From a virus, in IMG/VR virus record IMGVR_UViG_3300045988_134667, positions 8,223 through 72,222 of that record: a DNA stretch of 64,000 bases; one strand, 5' to 3'. Positions within the stretch are counted from its first letter, which is position 1, and each line of letters opens with the position of its first letter. The position numbers and the translations under genes are program-made. A model generated the notes under the pieces. That model ran no database searches, was not told where the DNA came from, and saw only the letters and a list, made by a program, of their open reading frames with translations. Below are positions 1-51,087 of the stretch, one piece after another.

Positions 1-1960
1 ACTGTTTATATTGTCTTTTAGTCTCATCATAAACATAAATCATAAAGTATGGCTTTCTGTATGCGCAAAGCGATTGCAAATATCTATTCTCTCCGCAAGC
101 ACCTAAATTGTACCAACTACTTTCCATTGGTTTTGCAATGATTCCCTTAATTTTGTCCAACTCATTTTGTTGATAGAGCTGACCACATTCTATTCTATAT
201 TCTAATTCTTTATATTCAGATGAATCTTTCTCAAAATGAGATTGAACTTCCATCATAGATGTGACATAATTAGTGATTGTTCCAACTTGATTTCCCATAC
301 CTGCTTTATTTGTTTTTTTAACAGCAGCTTCAGTAACAACAATTTTTTCTGCATTTCGCTGAACACATTCGATAGCAGGTAAATATCTATAACGTCTTTT
401 CATAACTGGATTATTAGTAGAAAAGTTCAGATCCGAGTCCCAATCTTCCCCATTCTCAGCCATACAAAATGAATCCCAACCGTTTATAATCATGATAGTA
501 TTCATATATTGATACCAATACTGACATTCATCCGAATTATTGATATTACACATTCGAATATTATTATGACTTGTCATTGGGCTTCTAAAGAGTACAATTT
601 CATCTTCATTTTTATCAATCCAAAATTTTGAATAACATTCATTTGCTTTTAATAAACCTGTAACTTCCAACCCACAAAGAGATTGCATAAGAGCAAATGG
701 ATCGCCACTTGCAATCTGATAGTTACCTTTTACAAATAATTTACCAATTTTCGCATCATTCATTTTTTTCTTGATATATCTATGTACAGAGTCGATTATA
801 TATGGATCTCCCAACATATATTCGCTTGTATATAAAGCACGTTGCCATGAATTTACATCAGTATTTTCGTTAATACCAAGAAATTTAATAGTAGAAGAGT
901 AGTCACCACACATAGCATCTTTTAAATAGTTGATTGTTGGTGCGCACAATTCCTCAACATCTTCGTCTGTAAATTCATAAGACTGAAGATATTGGTAATT
1001 CAATTCTCTCTGTTCTTCAAGAACATGCGGTGAAATTTTTGTTACAGAAAATCCGTATCCACATTCCTTATATGCATTCACATATTGCTCAATATTATCA
1101 TACGCTCCCCATAATTTAAGAGAAGACTCTGTGACAATCATTTCACATTGACGAATATCTTGCATGTTTCCCCAAATATCTTCAATCATATAATTACCAT
1201 TATTGTATTTTTCAATAAATTCATAAATAGGGAACGGATAGAGCATTCCTTTGAGCCATGCGTTTCTCAAGCACACACCGCCAGGAATATAATCAAGACC
1301 TAAAGATTCAGCTACTCGCTGCATATATTGTATAGTACAAAGATTAAAACCGTCAGATACATTGTTTTCAAGAGCTTTATCTTTAATAATTTCTCTTGTC
1401 GGTTCTTTTGAATCGCCACCATCATCAAGTGATATAACATCTGCAAAATATTGTGTAATACAATCTTTTACAACCAAAATTCCATGTGGATCACAAATCG
1501 GTTGTGATGCAGAACATGTTAATGCTTTGTAAGCTTCGTATTTTGCAGGAACTAATTTAGTATCTGGATTTCTCTTGCATTCACATAATTCATTTAATTT
1601 GTCAATGTACTGTGAATTGCAGAAGAGAAGAGTATTATTTTTTAATCCACCAGTAGTTCCGACAAAGCGTTTATAATTAACACCATTTATGATAACACCT
1701 TTTTTACCAGTCGCTCTTGCAAAATCAGATTTTTTATCAACAACTACCTGCATAAATATCTTTGAAAAATCAATACTCCAAATAGGTTTTTCTAAAATCT
1801 TATTTGCCATTATGCGGAATTCTTGGGCTTCAAACAGTGATATGAGTTCCTGATATTTAAAAGCCTCTTCTTTGGTAATCTGTAAATCCCAATTAGAATA
1901 CTTTAGTTTATTTGTTCCAATTTTAAAAATCTCATATTGAGGTACGCTAATACCAGCCAT
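1..1960 (-). CDS. large Cys-rich hypothetical protein; N-terminal 653 aa present, C-terminus lies beyond the window start
   Basis: Uninterrupted minus-strand frame from ATG at 1958-1960 (SD AGGAGG 4 nt upstream) to the window edge. Begins MAGISVPQYEIFKIG. Contains an LDDGGD segment reminiscent of, but not matching, DxDGD polymerase motifs. No confident family assignment. Confidence 0.7.
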   Translation of the reverse strand, partial: MAGISVPQYEIFKIGTNKLKYSNWDLQITKEEAFKYQELISLFEAQEFRIMANKILEKPIWSIDFSKIFMQVVVDKKSDFARATGKKGVIINGVNYKRFVGTTGGLKNNTLLFCNSQYIDKLNELCECKRNPDTKLVPAKYEAYKALTCSASQPICDPHGILVVKDCITQYFADVISLDDGGDSKEPTREIIKDKALENNVSDGFNLCTIQYMQRVAESLGLDYIPGGVCLRNAWLKGMLYPFPIYEFIEKYNNGNYMIEDIWGNMQDIRQCEMIVTESSLKLWGAYDNIEQYVNAYKECGYGFSVTKISPHVLEEQRELNYQYLQSYEFTDEDVEELCAPTINYLKDAMCGDYSSTIKFLGINENTDVNSWQRALYTSEYMLGDPYIIDSVHRYIKKKMNDAKIGKLFVKGNYQIASGDPFALMQSLCGLEVTGLLKANECYSKFWIDKNEDEIVLFRSPMTSHNNIRMCNINNSDECQYWYQYMNTIMIINGWDSFCMAENGEDWDSDLNFSTNNPVMKRRYRYLPAIECVQRNAEKIVVTEAAVKKTNKAGMGNQVGTITNYVTSMMEVQSHFEKDSSEYKELEYRIECGQLYQQNELDKIKGIIAKPMESSWYNLGACGENRYLQSLCAYRKPYFMIYVYDETKRQYKQ

Positions 1961-19229: not shown

Positions 19230-19451
19230 ATGAAAATAAGAACATATCAAAACAAGAGAAATAAACGAAAATACATCGAAGTGCATAATGATGGACATCA
19301 TCATAATTCTGTTCGTCAGTATATACAGCACGATCAGAAAATTGCAGGTCATAAAGTTGGAGTTGTTAGAAATTATACTGGCGATGGAAAACTTCATCGG
19401 TGGAGAAAAGGTAACTTAAATGAGCTATTGGAAGATTACAAAGAGGTGTGA
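19230..19451 (+). CDS. His-rich small protein
   Basis: ORF track trimmed to an ATG (MKIRTYQ) with SD TGGAGGGA; HNDGHHHNS. Confidence 0.5.
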   Translation: MKIRTYQNKRNKRKYIEVHNDGHHHNSVRQYIQHDQKIAGHKVGVVRNYTGDGKLHRWRKGNLNELLEDYKEV

Positions 19452-19807
19452 GTATGAAATATCAGCATATAGAATTTATTGATGGTAGCAATCCTTATAT
19501 CAGCAAAACGGAAAAGGATTTCAAATGGATGTGTGAACATTATGTTCTCATTCCGATTGCAGAAAATTTCTGGAAGGCAACCGATAGAATTTATTATAAA
19601 GTAGTTGGTTTTGTAGATAAAGACAAGAGAGCTACTTTTAACAGAAATTACAAGTCAAAAGTAGGTGCAATGAGAGTAATTCGCAAGGCAATTAAAGAGA
19701 ATAAATTTGAATGTATTATACTTAGAAAAGAAGTTGAAGATTTACGGAATGATGAACACTTTGATATTTCAGTAAGTACACCTATTAAAACATGGAATTT
19801 GGTATAG
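19448..19807 (+). CDS. hypothetical protein
   Basis: ORF track. Confidence 0.55.
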   Translation: MSMKYQHIEFIDGSNPYISKTEKDFKWMCEHYVLIPIAENFWKATDRIYYKVVGFVDKDKRATFNRNYKSKVGAMRVIRKAIKENKFECIILRKEVEDLRNDEHFDISVSTPIKTWNLV

Positions 19808-24017: not shown

Positions 24018-24974
24018 ATGCGATTAACAAAAGAGCAGAACGAAACAGCAAATCCATTACTTGATAATAGACAACTTAGGGATAAGTGTGTCGGAAGATA
24101 TGAAGTATTGGAACAGGTAAAAACATTGTTACTTTTACCAGATAATGAAACGGCAACGGTAAAACAAATTGCTGAATATTATTCATCAATTAGGACAGAT
24201 GAAGAGAAAGCATTGGGTAAGAAAGATATTATTATTTCAGAAGATGCTATTCAAAAAATTTATCAAAGAAACAAAGAAGAGTTTTCCAATGATGGCGTAA
24301 TGGTTAAAAAGTCTAAAGATTTTTTGAATTGGACAAAGTGTCCAAGTCAAAGAGGAAGTATTACGATGCAATTTGATAGTGGAAAGATACTAACAATATC
24401 AAACGCAGGAATCAAAGTATTTCCTAAAAGAGCAATTCTCAGAATTGGAATGCTTTTAACTGGATCAGAGGTTAGTTCTGAAATCCGTTCACAGCTTCTT
24501 AATATAGAAGAAAAGACTTCAACGGAAATCAAAACAGAAGACATTGAAGAAGAACAGAAGTTAATGCTTAGTGTCGGAATGGCTGTAGCAAGTGGAGATG
24601 CAAATGCGGTTGCTATAGCATCGGCAAATCTTGTAGCATTTAAGAATAGGCATATTGAAAAGTTACAGAATGATAATAAAGCATTAGCAGGTGAAATTCT
24701 TTCATGGTCTGATAGAAAGAAATTGAATGCAGGTGTTAGACAGTTAGCTGCTGTGACAGGTATCCCATTTGGGAATATGTGGAATGAACTTTATAAGAAC
24801 CTTCAGTATAAATATGGAATCTGCTTAAAACAGAGAGGTGAAAAACCATTTATTCAGTGGGTTGATGAAAGTGAATGGGAGAATGTTATCAAGACGTTCT
24901 GTGCAATGTGTGAGGCATATGACCAGTCACCAACAGAGATGTTTCAGCAGACTACACCGAAGATTAAAGCATAA
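24018..24974 (+). CDS. putative phage regulatory or antirepressor-like protein
   Basis: 318-aa ORF; SD AAGGAAG. The family call is a weak inference from overall resemblance to phage Ant/KilA-C-type proteins. Confidence 0.35.
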   Translation: MRLTKEQNETANPLLDNRQLRDKCVGRYEVLEQVKTLLLLPDNETATVKQIAEYYSSIRTDEEKALGKKDIIISEDAIQKIYQRNKEEFSNDGVMVKKSKDFLNWTKCPSQRGSITMQFDSGKILTISNAGIKVFPKRAILRIGMLLTGSEVSSEIRSQLLNIEEKTSTEIKTEDIEEEQKLMLSVGMAVASGDANAVAIASANLVAFKNRHIEKLQNDNKALAGEILSWSDRKKLNAGVRQLAAVTGIPFGNMWNELYKNLQYKYGICLKQRGEKPFIQWVDESEWENVIKTFCAMCEAYDQSPTEMFQQTTPKIKA

Positions 24975-25056
24975 TTACATAACTTCCACGCTGTATATGT
25001 GATGGAAACTGTCTTATACTTTCCAGTTCAAAGAAAGTAGTTTTATAAAGATTGGA

Positions 25057-25650
25057 GTGATGAATATGCCATATATTATATGCAATAATGATAATTATTT
25101 AGCACAGGACATAAAGAATGGATTTTCGATTGTACATAGCGAAGAAGAAGCTTTTAAGTGGCAGAAAATTGACAAGGCAAACAATGTTTGTAAAAAATAT
25201 TGCCAAACTAATAAGCAAGTAAAGAAATATCATTTAGAGGTAAAGTATGTATCTCAAGAGAATAAGGTTTTGAATCCAGTTGCGAAGCCTATTGAATTAG
25301 GGTATGATATTCTTGATAAGGTCAAAGAGATTTCTACATTCACAAAGGAAATCGAAGATAGAAGATTGTATCTAATGGAAATGTTACATAATATAGACTT
25401 GGAAATTGTTGATATTGAACATGCTGCTGAGTTTTATACATTAAATGCTTCTCAGGGATATAAACTATATAAAATGTTACATGATGCACGAATTCAGAGA
25501 AGATCATATAAAGACGAACTTGAAAAGATTAACTTGTCATTGGGAACTTCTATAAGAAGTGCAAATATGGAAAATCTCGAAAAGAGCATTGTAGGAATGG
25601 AACACAGGAAATATGAACCGAGAGTAAATAAGGAATTATTTGGAGTGTAA
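25057..25650 (+). CDS. hypothetical protein; intact paralog of the TAG-interrupted gene at 32213..32829
   Basis: Its C-terminus MEHRKYEPRVNKELFGV matches MDKRTYEPRVMNELFDL in the paralog, and similarity runs along the whole length. Confidence 0.6.
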   Translation: MMNMPYIICNNDNYLAQDIKNGFSIVHSEEEAFKWQKIDKANNVCKKYCQTNKQVKKYHLEVKYVSQENKVLNPVAKPIELGYDILDKVKEISTFTKEIEDRRLYLMEMLHNIDLEIVDIEHAAEFYTLNASQGYKLYKMLHDARIQRRSYKDELEKINLSLGTSIRSANMENLEKSIVGMEHRKYEPRVNKELFGV

Positions 25651-29043: not shown

Positions 29044-29325
29044 GTGGAATATAGTATGGAAAATTATAAAATTAGTTATAATGGTGATACTCAAATTAAA
29101 AATATTCACCATATAGGTGTTGATTATAATGGAAATTATTATAGCGTGATTTTCGGAGAATATGTAAATGGAGGATTCTTTAGTATTCCGAACTGGAATT
29201 GCGGTGGTGAGTTAGCTGGGCTTAGTGATGTGTTTTGGAATACAGAATCTATTCAGAAATCATTAAAAAGTAAAAGAGCAGCTAAAGCTATTGCAAAAGC
29301 GATAGAAGATTACACAAAGGAGTGA
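29044..29325 (+). CDS. hypothetical protein
   Basis: ORF track. Confidence 0.5.
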   Translation: MEYSMENYKISYNGDTQIKNIHHIGVDYNGNYYSVIFGEYVNGGFFSIPNWNCGGELAGLSDVFWNTESIQKSLKSKRAAKAIAKAIEDYTKE

Positions 29326-30326
29326 TGATTATGTGTTACAAAATAGAAGTACAAAACAAAAATGCTGAAAAGCTTAATAGGAAGTTGGATGAGTTAAACG
29401 CACCACAGTTTTTAAGAGATTACTTGAATGAGTTGGAAAGCAAGAACGGAGCGTTAAATTATCTAGTGGCAATTAAAGATTTTTTACAGTGGTTGATTGA
29501 AAGCAATATTATTAATAAGAAATCAATTTCTGAAATAGAAGTTTCTGATTTTAGTGACTTGCGACCACAAAATATTAGTTCATACCTTAGATACAAGGAA
29601 ACAAATGGAATGTCGCCAACCACAACGGAGACAAGAAAAAATATCATTAAAAGTTTCATACAGGATATTTATTCATACAGAGAATGTTTATTAAGAGAAA
29701 TTTATAGCAACATAGAAGATTTTTACAAAATGATTAAATATAAAGGAATCCCATCTGGTAATAACTTGACTAAAAAACTTCCAACAGAAAAGCAGCTTAA
29801 TGATATGGAAGAGAAAATAATGTGGAAGAAAGATGAATGTGTGAGGAATAGGAATATTGCTATCTTTCGAGTTTTAAGAGGAACTGGAATAAGAGAATCT
29901 GAACTTGCCGGTTTGGATTTATCAGATTTACATTTAGATGAAGAAATGCCATATATTACTATTCTTGGTAAAGGTGTGTACAGAGAAATGCAAAACAGAA
30001 CTGTATATCTTAGCGGATCTGCTCTGAAGGCATTAAGAGAATGGTTAGAATACAGAAGTACCTTAGATAATATTGTAGATACGGAAGCAGTTTTTGTAAA
30101 TAAAAACGGTACACGTACAACAGAAAGAAATATCAAACAGATATTTGAAAATTATGGCAATGGAATTACACCACATATGATGAGACATTATTATGCTAGT
30201 GTAATGAATCAGAATGGGAATCTTGCATTTGTACAACAGCAGCTTGGGCATAGTAGTGTGAATACAACGGTTAATAATTATGCAAACGGAGCTGTTGGAA
30301 TGAAAGAAAAATTAATGGAGATGTGA
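29325..30326 (+). CDS. int: tyrosine recombinase / phage integrase
   Basis: C-terminal catalytic signature RGTGIRESEL ... HMMRHYYAS ... LGHSSVNTTVNNY (R, H-x-x-R and the Tyr nucleophile). Confidence 0.8.
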   Translation: MIMCYKIEVQNKNAEKLNRKLDELNAPQFLRDYLNELESKNGALNYLVAIKDFLQWLIESNIINKKSISEIEVSDFSDLRPQNISSYLRYKETNGMSPTTTETRKNIIKSFIQDIYSYRECLLREIYSNIEDFYKMIKYKGIPSGNNLTKKLPTEKQLNDMEEKIMWKKDECVRNRNIAIFRVLRGTGIRESELAGLDLSDLHLDEEMPYITILGKGVYREMQNRTVYLSGSALKALREWLEYRSTLDNIVDTEAVFVNKNGTRTTERNIKQIFENYGNGITPHMMRHYYASVMNQNGNLAFVQQQLGHSSVNTTVNNYANGAVGMKEKLMEM

Positions 30327-30911: not shown

Positions 30912-31277
30912 ATGACTGTAAACTTTGGGTATGTTATGATGATTGACTTTGGAGAAGATAAAATTAATTCAGTTCAAGTAGGAGTAAGACCGGGCGTAAT
31001 CATTCAGAACGACATCGGGAACAAATATTCTCCGACCTCAATAGCTGTTCCTTTGACCAGTGAAATCAAGAAATTAAATATGCCATGTCATAAAGTCCTA
31101 CATATGAACGAACAAAATGGCTTGACGGAAGATTCAATGGTGCTTGGAGAGCAAGTAAGGGTAATTGACAAAAATTCGATATTATACAAAATGGGCACTT
31201 TAAACGATGGTGAATGTGATCTTGTCGTTAAAGCATATTTTGCAAATATACCTAGAAGGAGGGTTAATTGTGGCTGA
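30912..31277 (+). CDS. MazF/PemK-family endoribonuclease toxin-like protein
   Basis: GYVMMIDFGEDKINSVQVGVRPGVIIQNDIGNKYSPTSIAVPLTSEI. RPGVIIQND is the PemK/MazF fold signature. SD AAAGGAGG. Confidence 0.65.
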   Translation: MTVNFGYVMMIDFGEDKINSVQVGVRPGVIIQNDIGNKYSPTSIAVPLTSEIKKLNMPCHKVLHMNEQNGLTEDSMVLGEQVRVIDKNSILYKMGTLNDGECDLVVKAYFANIPRRRVNCG

Positions 31278-31572
31278 ATATAAGAGTATTACAAAGAAAG
31301 AATTGACAGAATTACTTGATAAATATCCAGAAGATAAAGAGTTTAGTATTATCCAAACTCAACTTGGAATGACAATTATTCCATTAGGAGAGCGGATAGC
31401 AAATAAAGTAGATATTTTGGAAATTGCGAATGCAGCAAAAACAATGATTTATTCAGAGAATAAATTCATGTCACAAGTTGATATGCACAGCGTAAGGCAA
31501 GATATATTTAATATAGAAAGAAATGGAATAATGGATACGTTGTTGCTACCTAGATTTTCTAATAAAGAATAA
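31270..31572 (+). CDS. hypothetical protein co-transcribed with the MazF-like gene (possible cognate partner)
   Basis: GTG start with SD AGGAGGG; overlaps the toxin gene by 8 nt. Confidence 0.45.
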   Translation: MAEYKSITKKELTELLDKYPEDKEFSIIQTQLGMTIIPLGERIANKVDILEIANAAKTMIYSENKFMSQVDMHSVRQDIFNIERNGIMDTLLLPRFSNKE

Positions 31573-31881: not shown

Positions 31882-31954
31882 AGGGCATTCGCCAAGTGGT
31901 AAGGCACAGGATTTTGATTCCTGCATTACATCAGTTCGAATCTGATATGCCCTG
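31882..31954 (+). tRNA. tRNA-Gln (anticodon UUG)
   Basis: Cloverleaf with acceptor AGGGCAT/ATGCCCT, D-arm GCCAAGTGGTAAGGC, anticodon stem CAGGA/TCCTG with loop TTTTGAT, and T-loop TTCGAAT. Architecture is nearly identical to E. coli tRNA-Gln. Confidence 0.8.
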
Positions 31955-32113
31955 CTTTGTGACATTCCACCCGGTATGTTACAGAACGCAAGTGATTTCC
32001 TTGTAAGAGCAAAATGTGTAGTTGCTATAGTTCTACCATAGTTTAATCCACTAACGGATTACAAGCTGATACTATAGAACTTCCTGATAAACTTGCGATA
32101 GTGTCAGCTACTT

Positions 32114-32187
32114 GGATCATTAGCACAATTGGTTAGTGCATTCGGCTCATAACCGAAAGGCTCAGAGTTCAAGTCTCTGATGATCCA
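32114..32187 (+). tRNA. tRNA-Met or initiator/Ile-lysidine type (anticodon CAU)
   Basis: Acceptor GGATCAT/ATGATCC, D-arm GCACAATTGGTTAGTGC, anticodon stem TTCGG/CCGAA with loop CTCATAA, T-arm CAGAGTTCAAGTCTCTG. Confidence 0.8.
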
Positions 32188-32212
32188 TTGCTAAATCAAA
32201 CAAAGAGAGGAG

Positions 32213-32829
32213 ATGATTACGTTGGCACAATATGTAATTACAGACGGTTCTCGTTGGATTATGAGAAATCGTAATGGTAAATATGTTCCAACATCTTGCG
32301 AGGCATTGGCTGATACATTTTCAAATAAAGCAGCCAATAATCTATATAATAACTCGCTACCCAAAGCCTTGAAATCAGTATTTCATATCCAGAAAATTGA
32401 TACCCCACCAGATAATGTAAAGCAGATTACACAATCAGAAGTGGAAAATAATACCGAAAAAGTTATGGTTGCTGAAAATATCTAGAAATGGATTGACAAA
32501 ATAACTGATCTTAATGGATTAGCAACAGATGCATTACATAGAAAAGAAGAGCTGTGTGAAGAACTTAGCTTTGTAGACAGGGAATTATCTGATATCAATC
32601 ATTATATAGAATTTTGTAATCTTAATGCAGCACAAGGATGGAAGGCATATAAGATGATAAAGGAACGGAGAATAAAAAGAAGAAGTATCAAAAATGAGAT
32701 ACAAATTCTTAACATTATTCTTGATAAAAAGATTTCTGACACAGTTACAAATGAGATTTTGGAATCCATGTCGAAAATGGATAAGCGTACATATGAACCA
32801 CGAGTAATGAACGAGTTGTTTGATTTGTA
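32213..32829 (+). CDS. paralog of the 25057..25650 product, interrupted by an in-frame TAG at 32483-32485 (pseudogene or amber read-through)
   Basis: Track ORF 32213..32485 ends in TAG. The same frame continues without further stops to TAA at 32827-32829, with no start codon until a late ATG. Homology to the intact paralog spans both sides of the TAG. Confidence 0.5.
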
Positions 32830-32845
32830 AAGGAAGGATATACAT

Positions 32846-33025
32846 ATGGTGATTTGTAAAAGGTGTTATACACCTATGGTTGGTGTTATGTCATTCTCAA
32901 AGAACAAGCATGAGAAATTCTGTCGTTGTCCGAAGTGTTGTTCAGAGACACGGCATATAAAAATCAATGATAACGAGTTGAGTTTTGGAGAGATATTACA
33001 TAGAGAAATCAAGAAGGGAAAGTAA
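32846..33025 (+). CDS. zinc-ribbon small protein (59 aa)
   Basis: SD AAGGAAGGA; MVICKRCYTPM...CRCPKCC. Confidence 0.5.
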   Translation: MVICKRCYTPMVGVMSFSKNKHEKFCRCPKCCSETRHIKINDNELSFGEILHREIKKGK

Positions 33026-33032
33026 TTACATA

Positions 33033-33593
33033 ATGGAAATACAACAAATATTGGAATGGTACTGTGATAATGAAATGTATCAGTTAAAAAAGATGTGTTA
33101 CCCAATGTTGATAAAGATTGGAGGTATATCTGACAAAGATTATGACGACTTTTACAGTATCGCTTTAAGTGTATTATCAGACACCGCATTAAGATTTGAT
33201 TCAGAAAAAGAAATAGATTTTGATTCATTCTTAGCCAGTAACATTAAGCGAAAGTTTAAAACCGAGATTCGTGATCGTAATCGTGAAAAACGTATTCCTG
33301 CTAAGAAAATTGAGAGTACAAGTAATCTTGTTACAGAAGATGGACTGGAACTTGGAGAAACCATTCCATCAAAGTTTGATACATATGAAACTGCTTGTGA
33401 GTATTTGTTTGAAGGTACTAAGATCCAAAGATATTTGGATAAGTTATCATATACACAACGCAAAATCGTTTCGCTATTATCTAATGGATATAAAGCAAAA
33501 GAAATCAGAGAATTATTACATATGGATAGCAAACAATATTCTAATAATCTTGCAGCTATTCAAGCATATGAAAATGTAAAAATTTTAATGTAA
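33033..33593 (+). CDS. sigma-70-family RNA polymerase sigma factor (phage-encoded, ECF/late-sigma-like)
   Basis: Region-2-like YDDFYSIALSVLSDTALRFD and region-4 HTH LSYTQRKIVSLLSNGYKAKEIRELL. Confidence 0.7.
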   Translation: MEIQQILEWYCDNEMYQLKKMCYPMLIKIGGISDKDYDDFYSIALSVLSDTALRFDSEKEIDFDSFLASNIKRKFKTEIRDRNREKRIPAKKIESTSNLVTEDGLELGETIPSKFDTYETACEYLFEGTKIQRYLDKLSYTQRKIVSLLSNGYKAKEIRELLHMDSKQYSNNLAAIQAYENVKILM

Positions 33594-33612: not shown

Positions 33613-35049
33613 ATGGCAAAGAAGGTAAGAGAAGAAAATATTCCATTGATTAACTATACCAGTGAGGTAAAAGATGGAGATGTTAATGACAATCAGGATG
33701 TACAGAGATATTTCTGTAGTGACAAGCCATTCGTTAATGGAATTGGTGTTACGATTCTAACTGGCGACTATCTTCCACCTTTAATTTTAGCTGAAGTTCC
33801 TTTAAATGAGGATATTGTACAAAAATATATTGTAGATGGTCTTCAGAGAACAACCGCATTAATGCAGATTAGATATGGGAATCATAAATTTACTGGTGCT
33901 ATTGAAGATAGTGAAATTGAGTACCAAGAAAAGCAGGTAGATGAAAATGGAAAATTTTTAAAAGATGAAGATGGGAATTTTGTATGGGAAAAGAAAACAT
34001 TTGATATTAAAAATAAAACATATGATGATTTTCCAAAAGAACTGAAGAAACGATTTGACAACTATCAGCTCAGAATTGCCACATATCAAAATTGTGATAT
34101 GAAAAAGGTAAGCAAATTGGTAAGAAAGCTGAATGTACAAAGAGGAATGAATACAAGTCAGAGAGCATTGACTTGGATTCCTACATATGCAAGAAAAATT
34201 AAAAATATTGCTGATGAAGGATTTTTTAAAAATAGTATTGAGTATTCTGACACTGCTAGGAAAAATGGAGAATATATGCAGAGCGTATGCCGATCTGTTA
34301 TGAATGTTTTTCATTTTGATGACTACAAACGTGGTGCAAAAGAAATATGTGATTATCTCGAAGATAATAGTAACATTGAAGAATTCAATACAGTCCATGA
34401 ATATTTTCAAAGAATCGAAGCAGCTTGTAAAGATACTTGTAAAGATATTCTTGTTAAAAAAGATATTCCTGTATGGCTGACGGTATTTAGTAGATTTGTG
34501 AAAAGTGGTTTACAAGATAGTAAATTTGCTGATTTTATTCATGAGTTGTCAGGAAAATTGCATAGTACGGATGTTAATGGCGTTAGTTACGATTCATTAA
34601 ATAAGGAGTCTGGTACTACGGATAAAAAACTTGTAGTTGCTAAAATTAATACATATACAGCTTTGATGAATGAATTTTTACATATTGATACAAGAGAAGT
34701 AAATGACACAGAATTGGAGAATAACAATACGGAAGAAAGTGCTGAAGAAAATACGGAAGAAAGTGTTCTTTCCTTTGTTCAAGAAAATACGAATCCAAAT
34801 GTGACGGACGAAGATATAAACCTTTACACAGACATGGTAGAAGATTGTGTGAAGATTGATGATCCCGTTTATAAAGAGTGTGGAATGGCATTAGTAGCAC
34901 TCATGGCTTATGCTTGTCAGAATGACAAGGATCAAGATTTTGAAAGATGGATTGAAAATTATCGCAATAAATCCGAATTTAGTCCATCGCAGAAAGTTAA
35001 TTATACATATATGAAACGCAGTTTTGATAATTTCGTAGCAAATGCGTAA
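33613..35049 (+). CDS. DUF262-like (ParB/GmrSD N-terminal nuclease-domain) protein with an acidic C-terminal region
   Basis: VDGLQRTTAL resembles the DGQQR motif of DUF262. 478 aa; SD AAGGAGG; forms an operon with the sigma factor. Confidence 0.55.
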   Translation: MAKKVREENIPLINYTSEVKDGDVNDNQDVQRYFCSDKPFVNGIGVTILTGDYLPPLILAEVPLNEDIVQKYIVDGLQRTTALMQIRYGNHKFTGAIEDSEIEYQEKQVDENGKFLKDEDGNFVWEKKTFDIKNKTYDDFPKELKKRFDNYQLRIATYQNCDMKKVSKLVRKLNVQRGMNTSQRALTWIPTYARKIKNIADEGFFKNSIEYSDTARKNGEYMQSVCRSVMNVFHFDDYKRGAKEICDYLEDNSNIEEFNTVHEYFQRIEAACKDTCKDILVKKDIPVWLTVFSRFVKSGLQDSKFADFIHELSGKLHSTDVNGVSYDSLNKESGTTDKKLVVAKINTYTALMNEFLHIDTREVNDTELENNNTEESAEENTEESVLSFVQENTNPNVTDEDINLYTDMVEDCVKIDDPVYKECGMALVALMAYACQNDKDQDFERWIENYRNKSEFSPSQKVNYTYMKRSFDNFVANA

Positions 35050-45412: not shown

Positions 45413-46933
45413 ATGGAATTAACACGTCTGCTAAAACCATAGGAAAAAAATAATTATTGTGAGTTAAGTGTAATTGAGCTTTGTAGTGGTATTGGTGCGC
45501 AGATGAAGGGAATTGATAATACTCATCTATTTAATGCAAATATGATTGCAACAGCAGATTTAGACAAAGAAGTAGTAGTTAGTTATGCTGCAATGCATTG
45601 TGGTTTGACTAATGAGATGATTGAAAACTATGAAGATTATCCAAGCAAAGAAGAAATGGTAAGACAGCTTACAGATAAGAGACTTGGATATGATTTTAAG
45701 AAAGATGTTCCGTATGATTGGGAAAAACTTTCACGAAAGAAGAACAAGACAAAAGGTATTGAGAAATATTGGTTAGCAGACCATATTTCACATAATCTTG
45801 GCGATATGATGCAGATTGAGTCACTGCCATATAGTGATTTACTTACATACTCGACTCCATGCACAGATTTGTCAATCGCCGGTAAACAGGAAGGATTAAA
45901 GTGGACATGTCATGATTGTGGTTGTGAATATGATCCATCAGAATTAGATGTAGATACTCGTTATACTTGCCCTAATTGTGGCAGTCACAACATTAAATCA
46001 ACTCGTTCAGGTTTATTGTATGAAGTTGAGAGACTTCTTGTAAAAGCAAAAGAGAATAATACATTACCAAAGTATTTGCTTATGGAGAATGTAGATGCTC
46101 TTGTATCAAAGAAGTATATTGACAGTTTTAAGGATTGGCTGATTCGACTTGATAATTTGGGATATAACTCATATTATCAGACAATCAATGCAAAGAATAC
46201 AGGTATTCCACAGAATCGAAATAGAATCTTCTGTATCTCTATTCGTAAGGATATTGATACCAAGTCTTTTGAATTTCCACAGCCTTTTGATACAGGAATC
46301 AGATTAAAGGATTTATTAGAAACAGATAGCAGTGTTTTGGAGAAATATTTCTTATCTGATGAAGTACAGAAAAGACTTCAGATAACAGATCCAAAATTTG
46401 AAAAGAATATTGTTGGTACTACAAAACCTGAATTCAGAACTATCGGTCAGAGAGATTTAGTTTATCAGCAGGATTCAGTAATGGGTACTTTAGTGGCAAC
46501 TGATTATAAACAACCAAAACAGATTCTTGCCAATTCAAATAATATAAATAGACTTTTTAATATTTATGGTGAAAATAAAGGAACTGGATTTGCAGGAAAT
46601 GTTTGGGATAAAGATTATATTTCTCCAACAATAACAACATGTCAAGGAGGAAATCGGCAACCAATGGTCGAAGAAGAGAGAGACAATTTGAGAGTTGTGA
46701 GAAAGCTTACGCCAAAAGAGTGCCATAGGCTTATGGGATTCGATGATGTTGATTATGAGAACTGTAAAGCAGTTGGAATGTCTGATACTCAGGGATATAA
46801 ACAAAGCGGTAACAGTATAGTAACAACTTGCATCTCTTTGTTGATTGAGCATTTATATAAGGCTCAGTATGACAATACATATATTTGTACAGATGAGAAG
46901 ATGGTAAATTTTCATCAGCCACAAGCGGATTAA
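45413..46933 (+). CDS. DNA (cytosine-5)-methyltransferase with a zinc-ribbon insertion. Motif I is encoded upstream of the track ORF start (45503), separated from a possible ATG (45413) by an in-frame TAG (45440-45442).
   Basis: Within track ORF 45503..46933: motif IV STPCTDLS, motif VI LLMENVDAL, motif VIII GIPQNRNRIF, motif X GNSIVTT, and an inserted CHDCGC...CPNCGSH. Motif I (IELCSGIGAQ) is read at 45473-45502 in the same frame, with no ATG, GTG or TTG between the TAG and 45503. Confidence 0.7.
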
Positions 46934-47780: not shown

Positions 47781-49140
47781 TACAATAGAGAGTCAGTTAT
47801 TGACTCTCTATAACAGAGGAGGTGAAACAATATAAATAAAGCGGAAAGACATGTAATAAACAAAAACCATCCAATGTATTTAGCTTGTGATAACTTATGT
47901 TTTCTGGCAAAGAATATGTATAATTTATGCAATTATACAATTCGCCAAGAATTCTTTGAGACAAAGAAAGTTAAGAAGTATGGTGACTTAAATAAGGAAC
48001 TAAAACATACAGATGCTTTTATGGAACTTGGATCAAATGCAGCACAGATGGTTACAAAAGCATTGTGTAAGTCTTGGAAATCATTTCTTGTATCAGTTAA
48101 AGATTATACTATTCATCCAGAAAAGTATTTGGGAAAACCTAAGATACCAGCTTATAAAAAGAAAGACGGTAGATTTGTTTGTACTTTAACTAATATGCAG
48201 ACTAAAGTGAAAGATGGTTATTTGTATTTTGCTTTTAAGAGAATGAAAGAGTATAACAATTTAATTCTCACAAAAGTTACAGGTCATCATTTGTCTACGA
48301 GAATTGTTCCAAAAGGTGGTTGTTATATTATTGAAATTGTTTATGACGATGAAAAGCAATGTAAAAGTGAATTGGATAGAAACAGAATTGCTTCGATTGA
48401 TTTAGGTGTAAATAACTTTGTAACAATGGTAAATAACATAGGAGAATCTTCTATTGTTATAAATGGCAAAGGAATTAAATCTTATAATCAGTATTGGAAT
48501 AAAAAGGTTTCTAAATTAAGAAGTATTGCGAAAACCGTAAATGGATCTGATTGGACTAAACAGATGCAGAGCCTTACAAATAAAAGATATTTCAAGATGG
48601 AGTATTTCATGCATTGTGCGAGCAAATGGATTGTTAGTTATTGTGTGAAACATAATATTGGAACACTTGTTATTGGTAAGAATGATGGTTGGAAACAGAA
48701 AACAAATATGTGTAAAATTACAAATCAGACTTTTACTCAAATACCATACGAAAGTTTTCTTGAAAAGCTTGGATATAAGTGTGAAGAAACTGGTATAGAT
48801 TTGATTAAAACAGAAGAAGCTTATACTTCAGGAACTTCTTTCTTAGACAATGAGTTACCTGTTAAAGAAAATTATAACAAGTCAAGAAGAGTTTATAGAG
48901 GATTATTTAAAAGCAACAACGGAGAATATATAAATGCCGATGTTAATGGTGCATTTCAAATAATGCGTAAAGTATTCTCAAATGTAAAAGCAGATGAGAT
49001 AGTGGGTGCATATTCACACCCTGTAATTATAAATTTGTAATTGTAAATGGAAAATAAAAAGCCAATGAATGCCAAGATTGATTCAATGCATGAGAAAAAT
49101 CTGTTTAAATTACAGCCAATGCCAAGTTTTGTGTATCAGG
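47781..49140 (+). mobile_element. IS200/IS605-family element carrying tnpB only (IS1341-like); right boundary approximate
   Basis: Perfect subterminal hairpin ATAGAGAGTCA-gttat-TGACTCTCTAT at 47785-47811, immediately upstream of tnpB. Repeated GCCAATG(A)ATGCCAAG segments lie downstream of tnpB, in the expected right-end / guide-RNA region. Confidence 0.55.
47874..49040 (+). CDS. tnpB: TnpB (IS605 OrfB-type RuvC-like RNA-guided nuclease family)
   Basis: RuvC-I IASIDLGVNNF, RuvC-II IGKNDGW, RuvC-III ADVNGAFQIMRKV. The usual CxxC zinc finger appears to be replaced. Confidence 0.7.
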   Translation: MYLACDNLCFLAKNMYNLCNYTIRQEFFETKKVKKYGDLNKELKHTDAFMELGSNAAQMVTKALCKSWKSFLVSVKDYTIHPEKYLGKPKIPAYKKKDGRFVCTLTNMQTKVKDGYLYFAFKRMKEYNNLILTKVTGHHLSTRIVPKGGCYIIEIVYDDEKQCKSELDRNRIASIDLGVNNFVTMVNNIGESSIVINGKGIKSYNQYWNKKVSKLRSIAKTVNGSDWTKQMQSLTNKRYFKMEYFMHCASKWIVSYCVKHNIGTLVIGKNDGWKQKTNMCKITNQTFTQIPYESFLEKLGYKCEETGIDLIKTEEAYTSGTSFLDNELPVKENYNKSRRVYRGLFKSNNGEYINADVNGAFQIMRKVFSNVKADEIVGAYSHPVIINL

Positions 49141-50285: not shown

Positions 50286-50765
50286 ATGAAGATAGAATTA
50301 ATCAAATTAAAATTCAATGATACTCATTCTTATAAGCATAAGCCATTTACATATTGCTGTGATGAAATTCAAAATGATAAGGCTATTGTATTTACAGGTG
50401 AAGATTTGGTATGCAACGATACTTTTGGATTAGTAGTAAGAGATTCAGATGATAATATAATTCCTCAATTTTGTAATTCATACACCGAAACATTTAACTC
50501 TTGGGGTGATGAGTATGAGCAGACAGATAATTATCCAATTCAATTTTGCCCTCACTGCGGAGAGAAGATTGAGATTTCAGTCGTAGAAGAGATTGATGTA
50601 TCGGATAAATATGAAGAATTAACTAAGCAGCGTGATGAATTATGGAAGAGGTGTCAGAGAACAGACAGTAAGAAAGAAGAGAGTGAGTTGAGAAACAAGG
50701 TTAGAAAGCTGGATGACCAGATAAACGATTTCTATGAATTGTGTGAGTGGAAAGGAGAATATTAA
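50286..50765 (+). CDS. zinc-ribbon-containing protein
   Basis: FCPHCGEKI. Confidence 0.5.
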   Translation: MKIELIKLKFNDTHSYKHKPFTYCCDEIQNDKAIVFTGEDLVCNDTFGLVVRDSDDNIIPQFCNSYTETFNSWGDEYEQTDNYPIQFCPHCGEKIEISVVEEIDVSDKYEELTKQRDELWKRCQRTDSKKEESELRNKVRKLDDQINDFYELCEWKGEY

Positions 50766-50766
50766 A

Positions 50767-51087
50767 ATGGAGAATAGATTATTGTTTGAGAAAGATGTTA
50801 TTAGAGCAGTTGATAAACATACAAAAGATGATGATCGGCTGGACGATGATATTAGTTGTATTCTTGAAGAAATTACTTCACCAATTCAAGTCGGCTCAAT
50901 AATAATAGAGGATAATCCAATACAGAAACAGAGACGAATATTATTATTCGAGAATGAGAATCTTGACTTAGAGCAGCGTGGTAACAGATATTATTTATCA
51001 CTTTATGATAAGGAAGGAAAATTTCAGAGAGAAGTAACCATTGATGTAAAGGACGACTATAAAGTTGGACTTGGGAATGGTAAGTAG
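50767..51087 (+). CDS. hypothetical protein
   Basis: Trimmed to an ATG (MENRLLF) with SD GGAAAGGAGAA. Confidence 0.5.
   Translation: MENRLLFEKDVIRAVDKHTKDDDRLDDDISCILEEITSPIQVGSIIIEDNPIQKQRRILLFENENLDLEQRGNRYYLSLYDKEGKFQREVTIDVKDDYKVGLGNGK

Follow-up and report, generated by a model that had tools for sequence, protein, structure and literature searches.

Probable recent nonsense allele at a conserved glutamine codon in an uncharacterised gene of a Lachnospiraceae phage

Does an in-frame TAG in a phage gene that lies just downstream of phage tRNA genes mark a freshly broken copy, or an amber codon that is decoded? We addressed this question for a gene in a 64-kb stretch of phage DNA (hereafter the window, meaning the whole stretch analysed), for which an earlier sequence-only reading had left both answers standing. 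Judging from comparison of the locus with its relatives, the TAG is very probably a fresh nonsense allele, null or truncated, carried by one strain.

The interrupted gene, its paralog and its surroundings

The frame that opens at ATG 32213 on the plus strand and ends at TAA 32828-32830 holds a single internal stop, the TAG at 32483-32485, which is codon 91 (Table 1). The 114 codons between this TAG and the TAA are free of stops, and an open stretch of that length would arise by chance with a probability of about 1e-4 at the 32% G+C of the window (our own estimate from base composition). Immediately 3' of the TAG the sequence reads AAATGGATTGACAAA, the base directly following being A. We saw no Shine-Dalgarno-like motif or start right after the TAG, and neither a Shine-Dalgarno motif nor an in-frame start before 32654, where an ATG is the earliest in-frame ATG, GTG or TTG downstream of the stop. 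The earlier description of this frame, namely a single TAG, a stop-free run of 114 codons behind it and no internal start until a late ATG, was thus borne out, and the C-terminal peptides quoted for this gene and for its paralog proved correct. The true start of the gene may be TTG 32222 rather than ATG 32213, because many homologs begin with MAQYVITDG and a GGAG at 32209-32212 directly abuts the ATG; counted from the TTG, the TAG is codon 88 of 202.

Table 1. Positions of the interrupted gene, its paralog and neighbouring features in the window
Feature	Position	Strand	Description and evidence
Intact paralog, 194-197 aa	25057..25650	+	BLASTP; family HMM, E 1.5e-32; phrog_32601
MazF/PemK-like toxin gene	30912..31277	+	PF02452, E 9e-18; position conserved in relatives
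tRNA-Gln, anticodon TTG	31882..31955	+	ARAGORN, Rfam; ordinary CAA/CAG reader and no amber suppressor
tRNA, anticodon CAT (Met; Ile2 in case of lysidine modification)	32113..32188	+	ARAGORN, Rfam
N-terminal part of interrupted gene	32213..32485	+	90 codons and TAG; ORF list, family HMM, AlphaFold model
In-frame TAG	32483..32485	+	Codon 91; one C-to-T transition (gene nucleotide 271) turns CAG (Gln) into TAG
C-terminal remainder of gene	32486..32830	+	114 codons and TAA; family HMM, model
59-aa Cys-rich (zinc-ribbon-like) ORF	32846-33025	+	Pfam/NCBIfam/PHROG, weak, below curated cut-offs
Sigma-70/ECF-like factor	33033-33593	+	Pfam/NCBIfam/PHROG, weak, below curated cut-offs
GmrSD_N (DUF262)-like protein	33613-35049	+	Pfam/NCBIfam/PHROG, weak, below curated cut-offs

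A family profile (HMM) was built from 120 database homologs. It matched the two pieces of the gene in the same frame and in register, at profile positions 2-89 (E 3e-51) and 91-204 (E 2e-69). Since both halves follow the profile in register and 114 open codons are unlikely by chance, the interruption of one gene is a real observation, far beyond chance. Furthermore, the protein matches phrog_32601, a phage family without assigned function, significantly and over most of its length (E 1.2e-8, residues 73-201 against profile positions 10-145 of 184), and this alignment spans the TAG as well. No relatives of the protein were found in Pfam, NCBIfam, PADLOC or among PDB sequences. An AlphaFold model with a mean pLDDT of 72 predicts that the protein begins with a small beta/alpha domain at residues 5-62, which a disordered linker (65-85) joins to a long hairpin of antiparallel helices (88-171); two short helices come last. 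The TAG falls at the start of the predicted hairpin and at a predicted domain boundary. A Foldseek search of the PDB gave generic coiled-coil hairpin matches only (E > 0.04). The region has no relative among GenBank phages (INPHARED) except for tRNA matches; a scan of genome contigs with one protein gave no match, and a scan with the profile detected two Lachnospiraceae prophages. The gene family is widespread, and uncharacterised, in Lachnospiraceae phages and prophages.

The ORF at 25057..25650 had been called homologous to the interrupted gene along the full length. The relationship holds for the C-terminal 112-115 residues or so, but the N-terminal 50 or so residues show no detectable similarity: the BLASTP alignment (38% identity, E 4e-24) is confined to the last 112 residues, and the family profile placed paralog residues 31-196 against positions 54-203, the first part with low confidence. 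The paralog itself matches phrog_32601 with an E value of 6.6e-6. Together with an upstream 318-aa ORF (24018-25650 for the pair; L081-L090), the paralog (194 aa when read from ATG 25066) recurs as identical proteins in more than 100 collection blocks, and the pair is unusually invariant across phages with differing surrounding genes; its function is not assigned. We considered whether the paralog is confined to the TAG strain, which would explain tolerance of the stop, and rejected this, since the same paralog protein occurs widely, alongside main-locus family members that are intact but more divergent.

The gene belongs to a module of conserved order, consisting of the MazF-like toxin, a small ORF, (tRNAs), the gene itself, the 59-aa Cys-rich ORF, the sigma-70/ECF-like factor and the GmrSD_N/DUF262-like protein. 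Two prophages of Lachnospiraceae, L036 and L037 (from Konateibacter massiliensis and Eubacterium segne), share this order, as do phages that are more divergent. Because the gene adjoins the sigma-like gene, its position suggests a possible regulatory role. In L001 (10834-13032) and L002-L006 the sigma-70-like and GmrSD_N/DUF262-like parts form one ORF of 732 aa, and they are two genes in the window and in L036. A 100-aa ORF without family match (31270-31572) overlaps the end of the MazF/PemK-like gene (30912-31277). Upstream of this toxin gene there is no recognisable MazE, its place being taken by a tyrosine integrase (29322-30326) and two HTH genes in divergent orientation. Sporadic disruptions of the same module occur elsewhere and were counted for a nonsense allele: L062 carries at about 690-700 (minus strand) a G-to-A change and an extra A in a homopolymer, a +1 frameshift of the same gene, and in L080 (2685-3312) the sigma-like gene is split into ORFs of 78 and 141 aa. 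These lesions are either real or assembly errors, and the homopolymer +1 of L062 is a probable artefact. In addition to an integrase, the window carries ParB-like proteins, an ATPase, a DNA methyltransferase (methyltransferase-like gene at 45503-46933) and a transposase (transposase-like gene, phrog_506, at 47874-49040), and no recognisable virion genes among the genes scanned. Related contigs measure 80-160 kb, and the window therefore represents 64 kb of a genome of probably 80-160 kb.

Codon 91 among related phages and the age of the stop

A protein search returned 810 database homologs of 202-205 aa, all of them uninterrupted. Gln occupies position 91 in each of the 18 homolog sequences that were read (motifs ENIQKW, ENIQYW and ENVQRW), and among the best 120 of the 810 hits, which are cluster representatives, 104 have Gln and 16 have Lys at this position, the Lys-91 sequences forming one separate clade. 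Because a gene caller could in principle translate TAG as Gln, we also checked the DNA of relatives. Codon 91 is CAG in all six Logan/ENA loci (about 98% identical), in 14/14 IMG/VR contigs, in 12/12 metagenome contigs and in nine of the ten contigs with an identical downstream 59-aa gene (L071-L080), the tenth, L077, having AAG; it is CAA in the Eubacterium segne prophage L037. By handle, CAG was read in L001-L006, L010-L029 and L031-L035. The comparison with related genomes that the sequence-only reading had proposed thus gave CAG or CAA at about 80 loci, AAG in one near-identical relative (L077) and TAG in none, and a degenerate motif scan of IMG/VR yielded 47 CAR and no TAG. Moreover, one nucleotide, at the TAG site, is all that separates the window gene from those of L025, L073, L076 and L080, and when 19 distinct haplotypes of the close clade are compared, T271 is the sole change that the window alone carries.

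Among near-identical strains, gene nucleotide 271 occurs as C (Gln, the majority), T (stop, the window) and A (Lys, L077). The Logan contigs L008 and L009, which come from other samples (SRR25448172 and SRR19487494), end one base before window position 32483. Such ends are expected for an unresolved SNP in the assembly graph and hint that the site is polymorphic in populations; Gln/Lys variation alone would explain these breaks without any TAG.

The exact 90-aa product followed by a stop codon was found elsewhere only in L007 (ENA ERZ28577141, a 21-kb scaffold). Because L007 and the window are 100% identical over 15,251 nt, the two are the same strain, and they possibly stem from the same sample. 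This bears on whether the T arose as an error of sequencing or assembly, or is a minority variant that the assembler happened to choose, in which case the real gene would be intact with CAG. Such an origin, which we regard as unlikely, would account for a single-base difference from otherwise identical genes; other assemblies of the module contain probable artefacts such as that of L062, and L007, as the sole other TAG record, may derive from the same sample. However, the TAG stands in two different assemblies, the 64-kb window and the 21-kb scaffold, and its site lies outside any homopolymer. Substitution errors in consensus sequence are rare at non-repetitive sites.

Over the 19 haplotypes, codons 1-90 have a pN/pS of 0.24 and codons 92-205 one of 0.04, which indicates that the part downstream of the stop is normally the most constrained part of the gene in relatives. 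The TAG lineage has zero substitutions besides the TAG, so that it allows no dN/dS estimate of its own; with no other private change, the mutation is too recent to show decay. The downstream frame would thus be intact because the mutation is young, and its state fits a very recent mutation and does not by itself speak against translation.

Use of TAG in the window and the upstream tRNA genes

The use of TAG across the window was assessed on a greedy non-overlapping set of ORFs, obtained with a home-made ORF picker and not with Prodigal. TAG terminates 27 of the 134 ORFs (20%), and most of the listed plus-strand ORFs that end in TAG have close behind them either a Shine-Dalgarno-like site with the next start or, a few codons on at most, a further stop. 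By this usage TAG is an ordinary working terminator in this genome, and for no TAG of the window other than that at 32483 was family homology shown to run on past the stop. All other same-frame ORF pairs split by TAG (15935/16610, 19897/20179, 49241/49598, 55692/55956 and 56339/56546) were set aside, as in each a Shine-Dalgarno-like site and a new start directly follow the TAG, so that the pair looks like two separate genes. The open extensions after 19448..19807 and 50734..51087 were checked as well. The ORF 50734-51087 ends in a TAG that is followed by 65 open, very basic and low-complexity codons up to a TAA (region to 51285), with no start or Shine-Dalgarno motif seen right after its TAG.

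For contigs of 5-100 kb, Borges et al. took a coding-density gain of more than 10% as criterion of recoding, and they reported in-frame TAG in 26-71% of the genes of recoded clades and a CUA suppressor tRNA in about 40% of recoded genomes (bioRxiv 10.1101/2021.08.26.457843). In the window, ORF coverage rises from 84.6% with code 11 to 87.9% with TAG read as sense, and to 87.1% in the control with TGA read as sense, which is short of that gain and not specific to code 15. Likewise, the combination of many genes with in-frame TAG and rare TAG terminators is absent from the window, given the 27/134 ORFs that end in TAG. The one feature of code 15 that we did find is a TAG aligned with Gln in standard-code homologs (104/120).

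The gene had been placed 26 nt downstream of a phage tRNA cluster. There are indeed tRNAs upstream, but only two genes, and the gap from the end of tRNA-Met(CAT) to ATG 32213 is 24 nt; tRNA-Gln lies 257 nt upstream of the gene. All close relatives have the tRNA-Gln(TTG)/tRNA-Met(CAT) pair at this upstream position, and the window tRNA-Gln(TTG) is base-for-base identical in the CAG-bearing L025, L071, L073 and L076 and in L077. Since the pair is kept and the tRNA-Gln is identical in CAG strains, the tRNAs are unrelated to the TAG. ARAGORN (default and relaxed) and Rfam detected only Gln(TTG) and Met(CAT) and no CTA-anticodon tRNA in the 64-kb window; neither a CTA nor a TTA anticodon occurred in the window or in 34 related loci, so that no phage-encoded CUA suppressor was found within this range. 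A suppressor hidden in the 157-nt spacer between the two tRNA genes was also sought with relaxed, intron and mitochondrial ARAGORN and permissive Rfam settings and was rejected, as only implausible low-score calls were returned, none of them CTA on the strand of the gene.

Some further features of this tRNA region deserve description. The 157-nt spacer (31956-32112) is more conserved among relatives than tRNA-Gln, folds better than shuffled sequences (z = -3.3) and has no counterpart in Rfam; a small RNA, an element for processing or a site of attachment are conceivable roles. Between the window and L001, L010 and L034 the anticodon stem of tRNA-Gln shows apparently compensatory changes (cacaggaTTTTGAttcctg versus catcgcaCTTTGActgcga), with the anticodon TTG kept. 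Furthermore, a second tRNA-Gln(TTG)/tRNA-Met(CAT) pair lies about 0.8 kb downstream of the gene in L010 (3536-3686), L015, L017, L021, L028 and L032, at the point where similarity to the sigma-like gene of the window stops, and this site may be a recombination or integration junction.

These data bear on decoding of the amber as Gln, by which a suppressor tRNA of the host or of the phage genome beyond the window, or near-cognate reading by an abundantly expressed phage tRNA-Gln(UUG), would yield the full-length protein as an incipient step toward code 15. The TAG stands exactly at a conserved Gln codon, as TAG-to-Gln recoding would also produce, a phage tRNA-Gln gene is encoded 257 nt upstream, the tRNA search covers 64 kb of a genome of probably 80-160 kb, and the TAG is followed by A. 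In the classic work on amber context in bacteria, an A after the amber codon favours suppression. Moreover, the 32% GC and the human-gut origin resemble those of known TAG-recoded phages (bioRxiv 10.1101/2021.08.26.457843). Nevertheless, decoding is very unlikely and the sequence-only suggestion of a decoded amber found no support: no CTA or TTA tRNA was detected in the window or the 34 related loci, the tRNA-Gln is unchanged from CAG strains, TAG ends 20% of ORFs with no code-15-specific rise in coding density, this TAG is the lone one in the window with family homology shown across it, and no relative has TAG at the site. In addition, reading of UAG by UUG needs wobble at two codon positions and should hence be inefficient. 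The weaker proposal that an abundant upstream phage tRNA-Gln(UUG) reads UAG at a low rate and so restores the ancestral Gln, giving mostly the N-terminal fragment and some full-length protein, is extremely improbable; if true, the locus would show TAG-to-Gln recoding caught in nature at its very outset, in a standard-code Lachnospiraceae phage lineage.

A recent nonsense allele compared with known systems

The other suggestion, a fresh nonsense pseudogene, is the one that the evidence favours: the TAG occupies a conserved Gln codon, one lineage-private substitution (T271) is the sole private nucleotide, and other samples contain genes that have CAG and are identical apart from it. As the TAG is private, the relatives are intact and TAG serves as a normal terminator, a nonsense allele is the reading that we adopt. 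A single C-to-T transition would have changed the conserved Gln codon 91 from CAG to TAG. Ribosomes would then terminate at the TAG and release a fragment of 90 residues, comprising the N-terminal domain and the linker, and the C-terminal remainder (32486..32830) is probably not translated in the TAG strain. Without the coiled-coil hairpin the allele would be null or a truncation, with presumable loss of function; at most, trace near-cognate read-through might restore Gln. The allele may persist on account of its very young age, or since loss of the gene is tolerated over short periods, and the intact paralog at 25057..25650 may compensate for the loss.

An adaptive truncation, in which loss or alteration of the hairpin is selected, e.g. 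as escape from a host system that senses the protein, and the N-terminal fragment stays functional, is scarcely credible: three alleles (CAG, TAG and AAG in L077) at one nucleotide among near-identical strains, the separate Lys-91 clade, the break of L008 and L009 exactly at the TAG site, the stop at a predicted domain boundary and the independent frameshift allele in L062 would agree with it, whereas only one lineage has the TAG and about 80 loci are intact, purifying selection in relatives is strongest on the C-terminal part (pN/pS 0.04), Gln-to-Lys is conservative and was seen only twice, and no defence or anti-defence family was matched.

In itself the allele is of small importance, being young and confined to one strain within a common group of gut phages. 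It nevertheless serves as a caution, as an in-frame TAG at a conserved Gln beside phage tRNAs mimics code-15 recoding, a reading against which allele counts in relatives, the use of TAG as terminator and the tRNA anticodons speak here. As a side product, we describe a widespread uncharacterised family in a conserved module of large Lachnospiraceae phages, and the natural truncation allele would offer a ready-made mutant if the phage were cultured.

Among known systems, programmed read-through, as in the A1 protein of Qbeta or in retroviral gag-pol, involves a stop conserved among relatives and a downstream part that is an extension domain. The locus in the window shares with these an in-frame stop and a long open homologous frame; in contrast, its stop splits one conserved protein, and all relatives lack it (no TAG at about 80 loci). 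TAG-to-Gln recoding (code 15) has been described in crAss-like, Lak, Garnet/Topaz and other gut phages (bioRxiv 10.1101/2021.08.26.457843; PMC9523058, Peters et al.). The likeness to these consists in a human-gut phage of low GC with an in-frame TAG where homologs have Gln, whereas the window holds one such TAG and not the 26-71% of genes seen there, ends 20% of its ORFs with TAG, shows no code-15-specific rise in density and no suppressor tRNA in the range searched, and does not share its TAG with relatives. Thus, of the recoding criteria examined, the TAG at a Gln position is the only one in which the window resembles code 15, and all others fail. Ordinary amber alleles and young pseudogenes of phages and prophages correspond to the locus in the point-substitution stop at a conserved codon, the intact relatives, the lineage-private lesion and the paralog; nothing essential differs, the allele in the window being too young for visible secondary decay. 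The kind of event is therefore already known, an ordinary and very recent nonsense allele in a common uncharacterised phage gene.
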